Below, piece after piece: positions 1 through 5,471 of a stretch of DNA of 5,471 nucleotides. The stretch lies in IMG/VR virus record IMGVR_UViG_2675903289_000010. One strand, given 5' to 3'. The stretch comes from a virus. Lineage: Duplodnaviria; Heunggongvirae; Uroviricota; Caudoviricetes. The notes beneath the pieces were generated by a model that was not told the DNA's origin, ran no database searches, and saw only the letters and a program-made list of their open reading frames with translations. A program made the position numbers and the translations under genes. Numbering within the stretch: the first letter of the stretch is position 1; every line of letters starts with the position of its first letter.

Positions 1-647
1 GCCGTGTTCGGGTAGCACTGTTTCACATCGATGATTTCGGTGTACGACGACCAGAGCGTTTTGTTCTGCAGCTGGTCTGTGGTGCTGTCCGGCGTCATTC
101 TGCGCATCCGGATATTAAACGGGCGCGGCGGCAGGTTATCCACCACCACCGAGGCCAGATACTGCGAGGTGGTTTTGCCCTTAATGGTGATGTCTTTTTC
201 CGTCACCCAGCCACCGTTACGCTGTATCTGAACCAGCAGGCGGACTTCCGACGGATTCCGGTCACCCTTTGAGGTGGTTTCCACCAGTGCCTGCACACCG
301 AAGGTCAGGCGCAGACGGTCGATGTTTGCCGACGTGATGGTCCGGGTGATCGGCGTGTCATATTTCACTTCCGTACCCAGCACCGTCTCGGAGCCGGAGG
401 ATTCAAAACCCTCCGGCGGTGTCTGCTCCTGCTCACCTGCACGGAACACCACCGTAACACCGGAAAGGTTTGTCTTCCCCTCGCTGTCCAGGACCGGCGT
501 ACCGTTCAGCAGCACGCTTTTTAATCCATCCACCGGACCGTCAACCGGCCCTTCGCTGATGGCATCGATCACACTCAGCAGCTGCGTGGACTTCAGGTTG
601 TCCTTCGCTTCGCGCGGGGTATGCCCCTTACTGCTGCCTTTACCCAT
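1..647 (-). CDS. J: Host specificity / central tail fibre protein J, N-terminal ~215 codons; gene continues past window start (3' end missing)
   Basis: Minus-strand ATG at complement 645-647 with GGAG about 8 nt upstream (complement 656-659). Reverse-complement translation begins MGKGSSKGHTPREAKDNLKSTQLLSVIDAISEGPVDGPVDGLKSVLLNGTPVLD, matching the N-terminus of lambda gpJ as I recall it; frame stays open to position 1. Plus-strand ORFs 31..231 and 274..663 are antisense shadows. Confidence 0.92.
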   Translation of the reverse strand, partial: MGKGSSKGHTPREAKDNLKSTQLLSVIDAISEGPVDGPVDGLKSVLLNGTPVLDSEGKTNLSGVTVVFRAGEQEQTPPEGFESSGSETVLGTEVKYDTPITRTITSANIDRLRLTFGVQALVETTSKGDRNPSEVRLLVQIQRNGGWVTEKDITIKGKTTSQYLASVVVDNLPPRPFNIRMRRMTPDSTTDQLQNKTLWSSYTEIIDVKQCYPNT

Positions 648-669
648 TCCTCACGCTCCATAAACGACA

Positions 670-689
670 AAACCGCCCGCAGGCGGTTT
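670..689 (-). terminator. I-J intergenic stem-loop (8-bp stem 670-677 / 682-689, 4-nt loop 678-681) followed on the minus strand by a T-rich tract; possible intrinsic terminator or attenuator
   Basis: Inverted repeat AAACCGCC / GGCGGTTT read directly from the sequence; minus-strand downstream sequence is TGTCGTTTATGG leading into the J ribosome-binding site. Function is inferred only. Confidence 0.3.
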
Positions 690-707
690 CACATAAAACA
701 TTTTGCA

Positions 708-1410
708 TCAGCGACCAATCACCACAACCTGACCACCGTCCCCTTCGTCTGCCGTGCTGATCTCCTGAGATACCACACGTGACCCCACGCGCATTTCACC
801 ATACAGAACAGGCATAACATTGCCCTGGGCAACCATGTTATCCAGTGACGAGAAATACGTGTTCTGCTTACCGTTATCCGTTGTCTGTGTNNNNNNNNNN
901 NNNNNNNNNNNNNNNNNNNNNNNNNNNNNNNNNNNNNNNNNNNNNNNNNNNNCGGGGAGTTCTGGCTTTCGGTGCCAGCATCTGTGCAACACCGCCAAGC
1001 GTCATACTGGCACCGAGAGAAAACAGCAGATTACTCGCCATAATTCCTACCCCCGGCATCCATATAGCAACCGCCATAACAGCCGCCCCCAGCACCGCCT
1101 GAAACACACCGCCACTTTTAGCTCCCACCAGACGCGGTACTATGTGGATCACTGCACCATTTGCCAGCGGCTCATTAAGACGGGCAGACAATTCGGTTTC
1201 ACCTGCATCACGCCCGGCAATGCGCACCTGATACCAGCCGTCACTCAGTTTCTGACGAAACGCCGGGAGCTGTGTGGCCAGTGCCCGGATGGCTTCAGCC
1301 CCCGTTTTCACACGAAGGTCGATGCGGCGACCAAATCGTTGTAAATCCCCGTAAAGGCAGATGCGCGCCATGCCCGGTGACGCCAGAGGGAGTGTGTGCG
1401 TCGCTGCCAT
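708..1410 (-). CDS. I: Tail tip assembly protein I (N-terminal ubiquitin-like domain ending in a Gly-Gly motif); interrupted by an N run at 891-952
   Basis: ATG at complement 1408-1410, stop TGA at complement 708-710. Track ORFs 874..1410 and 708..998 together read MAATHTLPLASPGMARICLYGDLQRF...VIHIVPRLVGAKSGGVFQ...MLAPKARTP[N]TQTTDNGKQNTYFSSLDNMVAQGNVMPVLYGEMRVGSRVVSQEISTADEGDGGQVVVIGR, colinear with lambda gpI. The apparent frame change across the N run is an artefact of gap length. Confidence 0.88.
891..952. other. Run of 62 N inside gene I (assembly gap or masked bases)
   Basis: Literal N characters. Flanks read ...KARTPR and TQTTDNG..., which are only a few codons apart in lambda gpI as I recall it, so the true missing length is probably much shorter than 62 nt. 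Confidence 0.95.
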
Positions 1411-1767
1411 TTGTCGGTGTACCTCTCTCGTTTGCTCAGTTGTTCAGGAATATGGTGCAGCAGCCCGCCGTCACCGCAGTAAATGGCGGCATGATTCGGC
1501 ACCGATGAACCAAAACAGCACAGCAGCACATCGCCCGGCTGTGCCTCTGTCAGTGCGACACGGTAAAAACCCGTCACCTCCATATTGTCAAGATAGAGAT
1601 TCTGACCGTTACGCCACCAGTCATCCCCGCGATGAAAATCCGGCATCTCAATCCCTGCCAGATGATAAGCATCCCGGAACAGCGTGTAACAGTCCGTCAC
1701 CCCGTGCTCAAAGCGCCGCCCGGTGAGATGCGGCACACAGCGGAACTTGTGAATCGCCCCCCGGCAG
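1286..1767. repeat. Direct repeat copy A (~482 bp), about 93% identical to 1769-2250; spans K C-terminal region plus I 5' end
   Basis: Manual alignment of 1287-1767 with 1770-2250: both start cggatggcttc and end cggaacttgtgaatcgccccccggcag; roughly 35 mismatches including one divergent ~60-nt patch (1545-1605 vs 2027-2087). Confidence 0.85.
1308..1767 (-). pseudogene. K: K C-terminal fragment (NlpC/P60 domain portion), second divergent copy, truncated at the N at 1768; overlaps the I start by 103 nt as in lambda
   Basis: Track ORF 1308..1736 ends ...GVTDCYTLFRDAYHLAGIEMPDFHRGDDWW...NHAAIYCGDGGLLHHIPEQLSKRERYTDKWQRRTHSLWRHRAWRASAFTGIYNDLVAASTFV. Similarity continues to 1767, then the sequence jumps to I-like sequence after the N. 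Confidence 0.7.
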
Positions 1768-1768
1768 N
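1768..1768. other. Single N at the junction of the two ~482-bp repeat copies
   Basis: Literal N; left flank corresponds to K (equivalent to 2221-2247), right flank to I 5' region (equivalent to 1287 onward). Confidence 0.95.
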
Positions 1769-1894
1769 CCGGATGGCTTCGGCACCCGTTTTCACACGAA
1801 GGTCGATGCGGCGGCCAAATCGTTGCAAATCCCCGTAAAGGCAGATGCGTGCCATGCCCGGTGACGCCAGAGGGAGTGTGTGCGTCGCTGCCAT
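1769..1894 (-). pseudogene. I: I N-terminal fragment (first 42 codons) fused at N1768 to K-derived sequence in a different frame
   Basis: ATG at complement 1892-1894; track ORF 1697..1894 reads MAATHTLPLASPGMARICLYGDLQRFGRRIDLRVKTGAEAIR then X then out-of-frame K sequence. Confidence 0.7.
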
Positions 1895-2250
1895 TTGTCG
1901 GTATACCTCTCTCGTTTGCTCAGTTGTTCAGGAATATGGTGCAGCAGCTCGCCGTCACCACAGTAAATGGCGGCATGATTCGGCACCGATGAACCAAAAC
2001 AGCACAGCAGCACATCGCCCGGCTGCGCCGCTGACAACGGCACCTGATACAGCCCTGTGGCCTCCAGATTATCCAGATAGAGATTCTGACCGTGACGCCA
2101 CCAGTCATCCTCACGATGAAAATCCGGCATCTCAATCCCCGCCAGATGGTAAGCATCCCGGAACAGCGTGTAACAGTCCGTCACCCCGTGCTCAAAGCGC
2201 CGCCCGGTAAGATGTGGCACACAGCGGAACTTGTGAATCGCCCCCCGGCA
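1769..2250. repeat. Direct repeat copy B (~482 bp), partner of 1286-1767
   Basis: See copy A; differences are scattered and include synonymous changes, consistent with diverged alleles. Confidence 0.85.
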
Positions 2251-2535
2251 GACCAGCCACCACGGCAAATCACTCTGCACCTGCAGCCGCCGGTCAGCCT
2301 CACTCAGCCAGGGCAGACCACCGGGATGACTGTGGACCAGCGCCACAATCTCACCCTGCATTTGTGCCCGCAGCCAGTCCTCCGGAGCCATCCGGAACCG
2401 TTCCTCCGGCTCACCGGAGATATTCTCGCTGGGAAGATACCTGTCTCCCTCCGGCGTTCTTACCACGAAGCCACACGACTCCGCTGGCGCACATCGCCGG
2501 GCGTGCGCCAGAATCGCTGATTCTGTCTCTGTCAT
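1792..2535 (-). CDS. K: Tail tip assembly protein K, 247-codon ORF: N-terminal JAB/MPN (JAMM metalloprotease-like) domain plus C-terminal NlpC/P60 cysteine peptidase domain
   Basis: ATG at complement 2533-2535, 5 nt after the L stop (TAA ATCCC ATG); stop at complement 1792-1794. JAMM signature HSHPGGLPWLSEAD (H-x-H-x7-S-x2-D) and NlpC/P60-like Cys/His residues (VTDCYTLF, NHAAIY, LLHHIP) are visible in the translation. An internal in-frame ATG (complement 2389-2391, MAPEDW) would give a 199-aa product. Confidence 0.88.
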   Translation of the reverse strand: MTETESAILAHARRCAPAESCGFVVRTPEGDRYLPSENISGEPEERFRMAPEDWLRAQMQGEIVALVHSHPGGLPWLSEADRRLQVQSDLPWWLVCRGAIHKFRCVPHLTGRRFEHGVTDCYTLFRDAYHLAGIEMPDFHREDDWWRHGQNLYLDNLEATGLYQVPLSAAQPGDVLLCCFGSSVPNHAAIYCGDGELLHHIPEQLSKRERYTDKWQRRTHSLWRHRAWHASAFTGICNDLAAASTFV

Positions 2536-2540
2536 GGGAT

Positions 2541-3239
2541 TTACTGCGAAAGTTTGTTAATGGAAAGGAAGCCGCCAAAGTTGCCGACGTTATTGCGAAA
2601 CTTACAGCCACTCAGGCATTTGCTGCATTTATCCTTCGTGATGTCGGACGTTGGCTGGTCATATTCATCCGCGACCGCCGGACCGTGATAACCGCACTCA
2701 TCGCCGCGATAGGTCCAGGTGCAGGTGTTGGCCAGCATGATACGTCCCGGAAAAACAGCGCCATCTGTTTCCGTCGGCGTGGACAGTACAAAAGAGGCAC
2801 TCACCGCGCTCAGTTCGCTGCACTGCTCAATGCGCCAGCGGCTGATCACCTCCTGCTCCGGATCGGCGTCACTGTTTCCGTTGACGAAGTTCACCGCATC
2901 CAGAAAACGGGCGTAAACCTTACGCCGGACCACCGTTCCGCCGACCAGACTCTGTAGATCTTCCGCCATCCCGGTGACCATACCGTACAGGTTAGAAACC
3001 ATCAGCGTGGGGCGCGTACTGGTGCCTTTGCCATTCAGTTCAAAACCACTCCCCTGAATGGGATACGGCTGATACTGTCGCCCCTGCCAGGTGACCGGCT
3101 CACCTTTTTCGTTCTGCTCATTACAGAAAAAATAACGTTCTCCACCGACCTCTGTCAGATCGATTTCCCAGAGCACCACGCTGGCCGACTGCTCCGCACG
3201 GGTGCATTCATTCAGTGTTTCCTGCCGGATATCCTGCAT
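2541..3239 (-). CDS. L: Tail tip assembly protein L (232 aa) with C-terminal cysteine cluster (Fe-S binding in the gpL family)
   Basis: ATG at complement 3237-3239, stop TAA at complement 2541-2543. Translation MQDIRQETLNECTRAEQSASVVLWEIDLTEVGGERYFFCNEQNEKGEPVTWQGRQYQPYPIQGSGFELNGK...ANTCTWTYRGDECGYHGPAVADEYDQPTSDITKDKCSKCLSGCKFRNNVGNFGGFLSINKLSQ matches lambda gpL. Plus-strand ORF 2214..2957 is an antisense shadow. Confidence 0.92.
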   Translation of the reverse strand: MQDIRQETLNECTRAEQSASVVLWEIDLTEVGGERYFFCNEQNEKGEPVTWQGRQYQPYPIQGSGFELNGKGTSTRPTLMVSNLYGMVTGMAEDLQSLVGGTVVRRKVYARFLDAVNFVNGNSDADPEQEVISRWRIEQCSELSAVSASFVLSTPTETDGAVFPGRIMLANTCTWTYRGDECGYHGPAVADEYDQPTSDITKDKCSKCLSGCKFRNNVGNFGGFLSINKLSQ

Positions 3240-3307
3240 CAGTTCACCACCTGTTCAAACTCTGCGCTGAACTCAACACGCAGCATACTGACCCGCGACG
3301 ACCATTT
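3239..3307 (-). pseudogene. M: M 3'-terminal fragment (last ~22 codons), lambda-like, truncated by the N run at 3308-3315; stop overlaps the L start (TGATG)
   Basis: Reverse complement of 3239-3307 translates WSSRVSMLRVEFSAEFEQVVN then stop, the lambda gpM C-terminus as I recall it; no upstream body of the gene is present. Confidence 0.75.
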
Positions 3308-3315
3308 NNNNNNNN
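3308..3315. other. Run of 8 N at a rearrangement junction (M 3' fragment | K N-terminal fragment)
   Basis: Literal N characters; flanks belong to non-adjacent parts of the canonical gene order. Confidence 0.95.
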
Positions 3316-3512
3316 AGCGCCACAATCTCACCCTGCATTTGTGCCCGCAGCCAGTCCTCCGGAGCCATCCGGAACCGTTCCTCCGGCTCACCGGAGATAT
3401 TCTCGCTGGGAAGATACCTGTCTCCCTCCGGCGTTCTTACCACGAAGCCACACGACTCCGCTGGCGCACATCGCCGGGCGTGCGCCAGAATCGCTGATTC
3501 TGTCTGTGTCAT
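3316..3512 (-). pseudogene. K: K N-terminal fragment (first ~65 codons), near-identical to 2339-2535, truncated by the N run
   Basis: ATG at complement 3510-3512, 4 nt after the L copy-2 stop. Translation MTQTESAILAHARRCAPAESCGFVVRTPEGDRYLPSENISGEPEERFRMAPEDWLRAQMQGEIVA; identical to the full K copy across 3316-3506 (equivalent to 2339-2529), with a single substitution at 3508 (equivalent to 2530, E3Q) and a 1-nt indel in the L-K spacer. Confidence 0.75.
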
Positions 3513-3516
3513 GGAT

Positions 3517-4215
3517 TTACTGAGAAAGTTTATTGATGGAAAGGAAACCGCCGAAATTACCGGTATTGTTGCGCAACTCACACCCGCGCATACACTTGCT
3601 GCATTTGTCCTTCCGGATATCCGTCGTTGGTTTGTCGAACTCGTCAGCCACTGCCCTGCCCGTGTAACCACACTCATCAGAACGGTAAGTCCACATACAG
3701 GTATTCGCCAGCATGATACGCCCCGGGAAAACCGCGCCATCCGTCTCCGTTGGTGTGGCCAGCACAAAAGAGGCACTGACCGCGCTCAGTTCGCTGCACT
3801 GCTCGATGCGCCAGCGGCTGATCACCTCCTGTTCCGGATCGGCGTCGCTGTTTCCGTTGACGAAGTTCACCGCATCCAGAAAACGGGCGTAAACCTTACG
3901 CCGGACCACCGTTCCGCCGACCAGACTCTGTAGATCTTCCGCCATCCCGGTGACCATACCGTACAGGTTAGAAACCATCAGCGTGGGGCGCGTACTGGTG
4001 CCTTTGCCATTCAGTTCAAAACCACTCCCCTGAATGGGATACGGCTGATACTGTCGCCCCTGCCAGGTGACCGGCTCACCTTTTTCGTTCTGCTCATTAC
4101 AGAAAAAATAACGTTCACCACCGACCTCTGTCAGATCGATTTCCCAGAGCACCACGCTGGCCGACTGCTCCGCACGGGTGCATTCATTCAGTGTTTCCTG
4201 CCGGATATCCTGCAT
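3517..4215 (-). CDS. L: Tail tip assembly protein L, second full-length copy with divergent C-terminal ~80 residues (cysteines conserved)
   Basis: ATG at complement 4213-4215, stop TAA at complement 3517-3519. Identical to copy 1 over the N-terminal ~150 residues; the C-terminus differs (LATPTETDGAVFPGRIMLANTCMWTYRSDECGYTGRAVADEFDKPTTDIRKDKCSKCMRGCELRNNTGNFGGFLSINKLSQ) but keeps all five Cys positions. Confidence 0.85.
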   Translation of the reverse strand: MQDIRQETLNECTRAEQSASVVLWEIDLTEVGGERYFFCNEQNEKGEPVTWQGRQYQPYPIQGSGFELNGKGTSTRPTLMVSNLYGMVTGMAEDLQSLVGGTVVRRKVYARFLDAVNFVNGNSDADPEQEVISRWRIEQCSELSAVSASFVLATPTETDGAVFPGRIMLANTCMWTYRSDECGYTGRAVADEFDKPTTDIRKDKCSKCMRGCELRNNTGNFGGFLSINKLSQ

Positions 4216-4259
4216 CAGTTCACCACCTGTTCAAACTCTGCGCTGAACTCAACACGCAG
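4215..4259 (-). pseudogene. M: M 3'-terminal fragment (second copy, ~14 codons), truncated by the N run at 4260-4270
   Basis: 4216-4259 is identical to 3240-3283 (agttcaccacctgttcaaactctgcgctgaactcaacacgcag). Confidence 0.7.
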
Positions 4260-4270
4260 NNNNNNNNNNN
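4260..4270. other. Run of 11 N at a rearrangement junction (M 3' fragment | L internal sequence)
   Basis: Literal N characters. Confidence 0.95.
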
Positions 4271-4779
4271 GCCAGCATGATACGCCCCGGGAAAACCGCG
4301 CCATCCGTCTCCGTTGGTGTGGCCAGCACAAAAGAGGCACTGACCGCGCTCAGTTCGCTGCACTGCTCGATGCGCCAGCGGCTGATCACCTCCTGTTCCG
4401 GATCGGCGTCGCTGTTTCCGTTGACGAAGTTCACCGCATCCAGAAAACGGGCGTAAACCTTACGCCTGACCACCGTTCCGCCGACCAGACTCTGCAGGTC
4501 TTCCGCCATCCCGGTGACCATTCCGTGCAGGTTAGAAACCGTCAGTGTCGGACGGGCAGCACTGCCCTTGCCGTTCAGTTCAAATCCCGTCCCCTGAATG
4601 GGGTATGCCTGATACTGCCGCCCCTGCCAGGTAACCGGCTCACCTTTTTCGTTCTGCTCATTACAGAAAAAATAACGTTCACCACCGACCTCTGTCAGAT
4701 CGATTTCCCAGAGCACCACCTGGGCTGACTGAGTGAGGCGTGTCGTCTCATGATGTGTTTCCTGTGGAATATCCTGCAT
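4271..4779 (-). pseudogene. L: L N-terminal fragment (~169 codons), third copy with divergent N-terminal residues; 3' end lost at the N run
   Basis: ATG at complement 4777-4779. Translation MQDIPQETHHETTRLTQSAQVVLWEIDLTEVGGERYFFCNEQNEKGEPVTWQGRQYQAYPIQGTGFELNGKGSAARPTLTVSNLHGMVTGMAEDLQSL...; 4271-4470 is near-identical to 3708-3907, while 4530-4779 is divergent. Confidence 0.75.
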
Positions 4780-4788
4780 CAGAGCCTC
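4780..4788 (-). promoter_or_regulatory. Ribosome-binding site for L copy 3 (minus-strand TAGGAGGCTCTGATG; AGGAGG overlapping the M stop)
   Basis: Reverse complement of 4777-4791 is TAG GAGGCTCTG ATG; the AGGAGG core sits about 6 nt upstream of the ATG. Confidence 0.55.
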
Positions 4789-5118
4789 CTATGCCACGAC
4801 CTGTTCAAAATCTGCCGTTATGGTTACCCACAACGCCCCCACGCTTGCCGACCATTTACGACAAACCACCCTGATCGGCTTCCAGTCATAAGGTGGCGTC
4901 CACTGAAATGCGCGGACGCCACCGTGCCGTTCCAGAAAGGCTTTTAAAAATGGGTGTTCACCTTTACGAACACGTATCTTCACGCTGTAAGTCGACAACT
5001 GGTTATTCAGTCCCGCCGCACGACGCTGTTCATAACCATCGCCCAGCTTCACTGTCACCACTTTCGGCTCTGATACCACATTCATATCCGGGCGCACTTT
5101 CCAGTGAAACGTCTCCAT
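4789..5118 (-). CDS. M: Minor tail protein M (109 aa), divergent from lambda gpM
   Basis: ATG at complement 5116-5118 overlapping the H stop (TAATG); stop TAG at complement 4789-4791. Translation METFHWKVRPDMNVVSEPKVVTVKLGDGYEQRRAAGLNNQLSTYSVKIRVRKGEHPFLKAFLERHGGVRAFQWTPPYDWKPIRVVCRKWSASVGALWVTITADFEQVVA is colinear with lambda gpM (same length, conserved GDGY, WTPPY, KWS, FEQVV). Confidence 0.85.
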   Translation of the reverse strand: METFHWKVRPDMNVVSEPKVVTVKLGDGYEQRRAAGLNNQLSTYSVKIRVRKGEHPFLKAFLERHGGVRAFQWTPPYDWKPIRVVCRKWSASVGALWVTITADFEQVVA

Positions 5119-5471
5119 TACCGGTATGCTCCACTTAACCGGCCACCATCACGGGCCTGCTGTTGCATAAAGTCCGCGGCCGCTTTTTTCCCGAGGTCAT
5201 AAACCACCTTCAGGGCAGCCGGACCTATCTGCCCGTTCGTGCCATCGTTATTGATCTCAATGTTGTACTGCGGGGCAAACATCACCATGCCTGAACCACC
5301 AGTATCCGCCACACCCCCCAGCTTACCATCAGCACCGCGACGCAGTGGCAGAATGGCTTCAGGTCCCGCTTCCCCCATCACACCCGCGCCTTTTGCAAAA
5401 GCAAAAAACGTCGGACGGTTAACCACCGTGCCACTGTAGCGACTCAAATCAGCAGACTGAGGTAGCCTGAG
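5118..5471 (-). CDS. H: Tail tape measure protein H, C-terminal ~117 codons; 5' end lies beyond window end
   Basis: Minus-strand frame is open from 5471 down to stop TAA at complement 5118-5120. Translation ...MVMFAPQYNIEINNDGTNGQIGPAALKVVYDLGKKAAADFMQQQARDGGRLSGAYR resembles the lambda gpH C-terminus (INNDGTNGQIGPAALK). The track's M at 5447 is a TTG, not the real start. Confidence 0.85.
   Translation of the reverse strand, partial: LRLPQSADLSRYSGTVVNRPTFFAFAKGAGVMGEAGPEAILPLRRGADGKLGGVADTGGSGMVMFAPQYNIEINNDGTNGQIGPAALKVVYDLGKKAAADFMQQQARDGGRLSGAYR

Follow-up and report, generated by a model that had tools for sequence, protein, structure and literature searches.

The window (the whole stretch of DNA analysed here, 5,471 nt) holds complete or partial copies of the tail genes J, I, K, L, M and H, all on the minus strand (Table 1). 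The complete K gene (1792–2535) matches both Prok-JAB (E 5.8e-14) and NLPC_P60 (E 5.8e-13), which identifies its product as gpK; it lies between L and I, and this synteny agrees with that of annotated prophages. The I gene is located downstream of K and overlaps it. It matches Lambda_tail_I (PF06805) at 953–1410 (E 4.5e-24), and the fragment at 1769–1894 matches the same family (E 1.8e-7), identifying both as gpI. Neither gene is unusual: their products fall within the lambda K (Prok-JAB plus NlpC/P60) and I (Lambda_tail_I) families, and the synteny is normal. In comparison with lambda K and I, the domains, the H-M-L-K-I-J order and the K/I overlap are the same as in lambdoid phages. However, finished phages and prophages carry each gene once per module, whereas the window has extra copies or fragments of K, I and L, always beside runs of N.

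Four such runs divide the window into five contigs, S1 to S5, of 890, 815, 1539, 944 and 1201 bp. Pfam domains are distributed over the contigs as follows: FNIII-A_GpJ in the J part of S1 (E 2.9e-43), Lambda_tail_I and NLPC_P60 in S2, Prok-JAB, NLPC_P60 and Phage_tail_L in S3, and Phage_min_tail in S5. K is present as one complete copy together with a C-terminal fragment and an N-terminal fragment, I as one complete (though gapped) copy and one fragment, and the C-terminus of M as two stubs. L is written three times, the third time truncated, and its copies are bounded by N runs. Three alleles of L imply that at least three lambdoid tail modules were present in the sample. The two complete L alleles are only 79% identical in the C-terminal part of the protein (2537–2836 vs 3513–3812) and at least 96% identical over the rest; the cysteines of a C-terminal CxW...C...CxxCxxxC-like stretch are kept in both.

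Table 1. Contigs, N runs and repeat copies in the window. Reference coordinates are those of the tail module in locus L001 (NZ_CP022279.1); a minus sign in brackets gives the strand of the gene part.
Feature	Position	Strand	Content and placement
Contig S1	1–890		J N-terminus (1–647, −) and I C-terminus (708–890, −); reference 3748–4637
Scaffold gap, 62 N, mis-sized (true size ~1 nt)	891–952		S1 and S2 abut on L001 and on L010
Contig S2	953–1767		I N-terminal two thirds (953–1410, −) and K C-terminal fragment, allele A (1308–1767, −); reference 4639–5483
Single N	1768		Exactly between the repeat copies; read as a join of overlapping, unmerged contigs
Contig S3	1769–3307		I N-terminal fragment (1769–1894, −), complete K, allele B (1792–2535, −), complete L (2541–3239, −) and M C-terminal fragment (3239–3307, −); reference 5001–6539
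Scaffold gap, 8 N	3308–3315		Flanking contigs overlap by ~970 nt on L001
Contig S4	3316–4259		K N-terminal fragment (3316–3512, −), second complete L allele (3517–4215, −) and M C-terminal fragment (4215–4259, −); reference 5571–6514
Scaffold gap, 11 N	4260–4270		Flanking contigs overlap by ~550 nt
Contig S5	4271–5471		Third L allele, truncated (4271–4779, −), M (4789–5118, −) and H C-terminus (5118–5471, −); reference 5963–6935
Repeat copy A	1285–1767	−	Last 152 codons and stop of K, first 42 codons of I
Repeat copy B	1769–2251	−	Last 152 codons and stop of K, first 42 codons of I

The window corresponds to the entire 5,471-bp draft WGS record CXCF01000249.1 of assembly GCA_001251775.1; an exact look-up with the protein of the complete K gave this contig as its one match. 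The record is made up only of repeat-derived contigs of 0.8–1.5 kb and is without unique flanking sequence. Its four N runs mark it as part of a draft, gapped assembly, the type of source expected for a scaffolding artefact. A literature search on the accession (CXCF01, GCA_001251775) returned nothing. Public gene calls on CXCF01000249.1, which as locus L019 reads as the reverse of the window, are located at 693–1223, 1960–2199 and 3772–4164. Fragments are called as proteins, namely a 176-aa L, a 79-aa K N-terminus and a 130-aa K consisting of NlpC/P60 only, and two full L genes are called as well.

The direct repeat and its two alleles

The two copies of the direct repeat, A and B, are each 483 nt long, lie at an offset of 484 and align without indels. 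Pairwise alignment over the 483 nt gives 34 mismatches (92.96% identity), and the length and similarity of the copies far exceed chance. Base 1768, the sole nucleotide separating copy A from copy B, is an N. An earlier note, made from the letters alone, had described a 482-bp repeat at 1287–1767 and 1770–2250 with copies about 7% diverged; the repeat and its divergence stand, with coordinates that fall 1–2 nt short at the ends.

Both copies match the NlpC/P60 profile in its entirety (positions 1–105 of 105), and the I segments in both match Lambda_tail_I; the K fragment of copy A (1308–1736) contains the NLPC_P60 part only. As previously noticed, the Cys (TDCY) and His (NHAAIY) motifs of NlpC/P60 and the K stop are kept in both copies. 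The I N-terminal fragment pointed out at 1769–1894 was likewise borne out: it comprises 42 codons, encodes a protein identical to that of the other copy and matches Lambda_tail_I.

Mismatches are unevenly distributed between the copies. Nineteen fall within 49 nt (1542–1590 vs 2026–2074), and 15 are spread over the remaining 434 nt (~3.5%). A strongly divergent patch had been placed at 1545–1605 with a length of ~60 nt; its presence is confirmed, as are its peptides, TGFYRVALTEAQPGD and TGLYQVPLSAAQPGD, but its position and extent are those given here. Within K the patch falls in the NlpC/P60 domain, in the stretch that separates the catalytic Cys motif from the catalytic His motif. Clustering of this kind is typical lambdoid mosaicism, and the patch suggests either a short tract of recombination or a surface loop that varies between lambdoid K alleles.

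For the K part of the repeat, Nei–Gojobori estimates are dS 0.196, dN 0.040 and omega 0.20; omega is 0.15 when the K/I overlap is left out. In the I part all five differences are synonymous. Such a pattern is that of two functional alleles, and a truncated duplicate degenerating at its site would look different. A scenario in which a recent duplication was followed by decay of its truncated copy was rejected on the dN/dS of ~0.2 and the intact domain of the fragment. Each allele is also found in single copy elsewhere, and the earlier reading of the copies as homologous alleles under purifying selection, not a recent duplication, is upheld. S2, which contains copy A, is an ordinary colinear K-I region elsewhere, with 99.75% identity to the IMG/VR locus L010 and 99.3% to NZ_CP065613.1. 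For copy B, identity is 99.0% with phage Ayreon and 98.3% with phage 434, and the copy occurs once per record in all 8 matches listed. The median number of such regions in complete E. coli genomes is 2–3, with up to 14 in a genome; several diverged copies within one strain are thus to be expected.

Contig tiling on a finished reference

The five contigs were placed on locus L001, the finished E. coli chromosome NZ_CP022279.1, whose annotation lists one copy each, in order, of the tape measure, an M-like tail protein, L, a C40 peptidase (K), a tail assembly protein (I) and J. The module of this finished prophage is therefore single-copy and ordered H-M-L-K-I-J. On it the five pieces of the window are sorted by start coordinate, and neighbouring pieces overlap at three of their four joins, by 483 nt for S2/S3, ~970 nt for S3/S4 and ~550 nt for S4/S5. 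S4 is nested entirely within the range of S3. The 483-nt overlap of S2 and S3 on the reference is the repeat itself. Further repeats are present at the two other N runs concerned, where 2339–3283 is 93.0% identical to 3316–4259 and 3707–4241 is 89% identical to 4271–4815. S5 is 99.8% identical to the IMG/VR locus L002.

The remaining join differs from these. S1 and S2 abut on the reference and on L010 with 1 nt missing, despite the 62 N written between them, and replacing the gap by any single base gives a full-length, in-frame gpI. Since 62 N here stand for ~1 nt, the gap lengths carry no reliable information. As written in the window, the two halves of gpI are out of frame across 891–952. 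That the N runs are masks added to the data was considered and rejected, given that three of the four stand at breaks of colinearity and that the 62-N run replaces ~1 nt.

The junction in other genomes and drafts

A junction query (1560–1980) was searched against complete E. coli, where 4,402 records matched, and 75 rows were inspected (the 15 best and 60 sampled evenly down the ranking). In 74 of the 75 the query matched as two permuted pieces within 482–487 bp, which is the single-copy K/I layout; the other row, the 60th of the evenly sampled set, was a 23% partial match. Among phage records, the 2,355-nt query spanning S2 and S3 collapses to ~1,870 bp in two pieces in the 12 rows listed of 268 matches, and copy A or copy B alone occurs once per phage record in all listed rows. 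Exact patterns of the junction were also scanned, allowing 0–20 arbitrary bases at the join. They gave 0 matches in 185,579 species genomes (one genome per species) and 0 matches in the 2.9 million viral contigs of IMG/VR, the patterns being allele-specific and such as would miss a diverged junction.

An IMG/VR scan with an I-side 54-mer yielded 17 loci, which were used as comparators. In each of 18 related loci ACCAGCCACCACGG comes after the K-side anchor GTGAATCGCCCCCCGGCAG, i.e. K continues, and I sequence comes before the I-side anchor. Among the window and these loci, only the window departs from the continuity of K into K, and it does so at the N at 1768. Thus neither feature expected of a tandem duplication was found: the junction base is an N, and the same junction was not seen in the related genomes inspected or scanned.

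Five of the 17 IMG/VR loci hold single Ns (L002, L004, L010, L013 and L015), and in each the pieces flanking the N cover ranges of the same reference module that overlap. The joins are at L002:5497, L004:3113, L010:898, L013:8215 and L015:8199/9658/11532. Single-N joins in IMG/VR contigs from draft isolate genomes are the same class of artefact, recurring across assemblies. The phage record ON470602.1 (Escherichia phage vB_EcoS-885R8, deposited as a 'partial genome') matches at two places and has duplicated tail genes; L-M-H is written twice in it, and N runs are located at 928–937, 1564–1573, 2914–2947 and 3184–3193. Positions 1–5238 of this record (locus L020) read I, K fragment, L, M, H fragment, L, M, H fragment, H. 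The duplication is probably the same kind of scaffold artefact in a deposited phage record. Among the records examined, duplicated tail segments occur only in N-gapped drafts.

Origin of the repeat

The repeat is very probably the unmerged overlap of contigs S2 and S3, derived from different lambdoid prophages and joined by a scaffolder, and not a biological duplication. Five direct observations bear on this: an N stands at the junction, the contigs tile on the reference, the record is a draft, the copies diverge as alleles do, and the junction is absent from the inspected finished records and the exact scans. The two alleles presumably sit in different prophages of one strain, with a scaffolder as the likely author of the join across 1768, and reads crossing that position would not be expected.

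The proposed sequence of events starts from a strain in which the H-M-L-K-I-J module would be present in several diverged copies, one per lambdoid prophage. Short-read assembly of tail modules that are 85–97% identical would yield small contigs ending at branch points, some pieces being allele-specific and others shared. S2 would end inside K with allele A, S3 would start inside I with allele B, and the N at 1768 would be their join. Over its final 36 nt S2 does not differ from the matching stretch of S3, which fits a contig that stops at the point where the alleles converge. Through read pairs from the prophage with allele A, S2 would be linked to the shared sequence of S3 past 2252, implying a gap of about −483 nt. 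As the overlapping ends are 86–93% identical (7% different for S2/S3), merging would have been impossible, and the scaffolder may have written a minimal gap, chaining the pieces end to end with Ns as placeholders. Contig ordering guided by a reference would also be in keeping with the sorting of the pieces by start.

Several scaffolders may emit a minimal 1-N gap when the gap estimate is negative, a convention not confirmed in the papers searched. Overlapping contigs are recorded by scaffolders with negative gap sizes, and gaps are sometimes inserted between them (PMC5368935); SSPACE and GapFiller are greedy, and false joins are possible (PMC5320598). A Velvet, SSPACE and GapFiller pipeline (PMC5320598) was considered for GCA_001251775.1, but this would be a guess from the type of record and is not claimed.

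Under the scaffolding model, copies A and B would each be covered at single-prophage depth, and excess depth would fall on the shared sequence beyond 2252. The earlier note had proposed that twofold coverage of a single copy would indicate a collapsed or chimeric repeat; its prediction for read depth is probably inverted, though its hint of a chimeric repeat pointed in the right direction. Its statement that the repeat is not a sequencing error holds only in a narrow sense, the adjacency itself being attributed to an error of assembly (scaffolding). It also assumed that the copies physically adjoin each other and kept a true tandem duplication as an option, having missed the N at 1768 and the chain of five overlapping contigs.

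A genuine partial tandem duplication within one prophage would require a 484-bp segment comprising the 3′ end of K and the 5′ end of I to have been duplicated, or gained when two prophages recombined unequally, with the N at 1768 an ambiguous base call. The copies do lie head to tail exactly one base apart, open reading frames are kept in both, and the N might, in principle, stand for an ambiguous call at one position of an otherwise continuous sequence; unequal recombination between lambdoid prophages is also known in general. Nevertheless, this explanation is extremely improbable. The base at the junction is an N, two of the three other N runs also separate overlapping alleles, S4 is nested, and L would be needed three times in 5.5 kb. 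The record is a 5.5-kb draft scaffold, and the junction was met in none of the inspected finished E. coli or phage rows and in neither exact-pattern scan. Additionally, 7% divergence with a dN/dS of ~0.2 means that the truncated copy has not been decaying at this site. The window resembles genuine tandem segmental duplications of phages in having homologous segments head to tail. However, such duplications have a sequenced junction, usually show almost no divergence while recent and would be expected again in relatives, whereas the window has an N at the junction, 7% allele-like divergence and a junction that was not found in the inspected finished records or the exact scans. Were the adjacency nonetheless physical, unequal recombination of two resident lambdoid prophages would have left a hybrid module in which a truncated K′ (a stand-alone NlpC/P60) and an I′ fragment lie upstream of a complete K-I pair, the N being a poor base call; this too is scarcely credible.

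Another conceivable, but very unlikely, explanation keeps the adjacency artefactual and derives the alleles from two strains, through contamination or a mixed culture, instead of from two prophages in a single genome. No feature of the window links its contigs to a single chromosome, and the scaffold is without unique flanks. Against this, multiple diverged lambdoid tail modules are the norm in an E. coli genome (median 2–3, up to 14), and contamination is unnecessary. A mixed-culture origin would in any case leave the verdict of artefactual adjacency unchanged.

The closest parallel to a scaffolded overlap of S2 and S3 is found in the unmerged contig overlaps, or negative gaps, in short-read scaffolds of multi-prophage E. 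coli drafts. These have the same N placeholders exactly at breaks of colinearity, adjacent pieces that overlap on a single-copy reference and end in diverged copies of a multi-copy repeat, and a short, repeat-only record; there is no material difference from the window.

Nothing at this locus functions as a repeat, and the repeat is without biological significance; the practical point is one of data hygiene. When multi-copy prophage modules are put together into short draft scaffolds, these contain spurious tandem repeats as well as genes that only seem truncated or duplicated, and through gene calls such as those on CXCF01000249.1 scaffold artefacts enter protein databases and viral-contig catalogues. 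Any repeat with an N at its boundary should be removed before it is interpreted. The underlying biology is that of ordinary gpK (MPN/JAB plus NlpC/P60) and gpI tail-tip assembly genes, present as two mosaic alleles.
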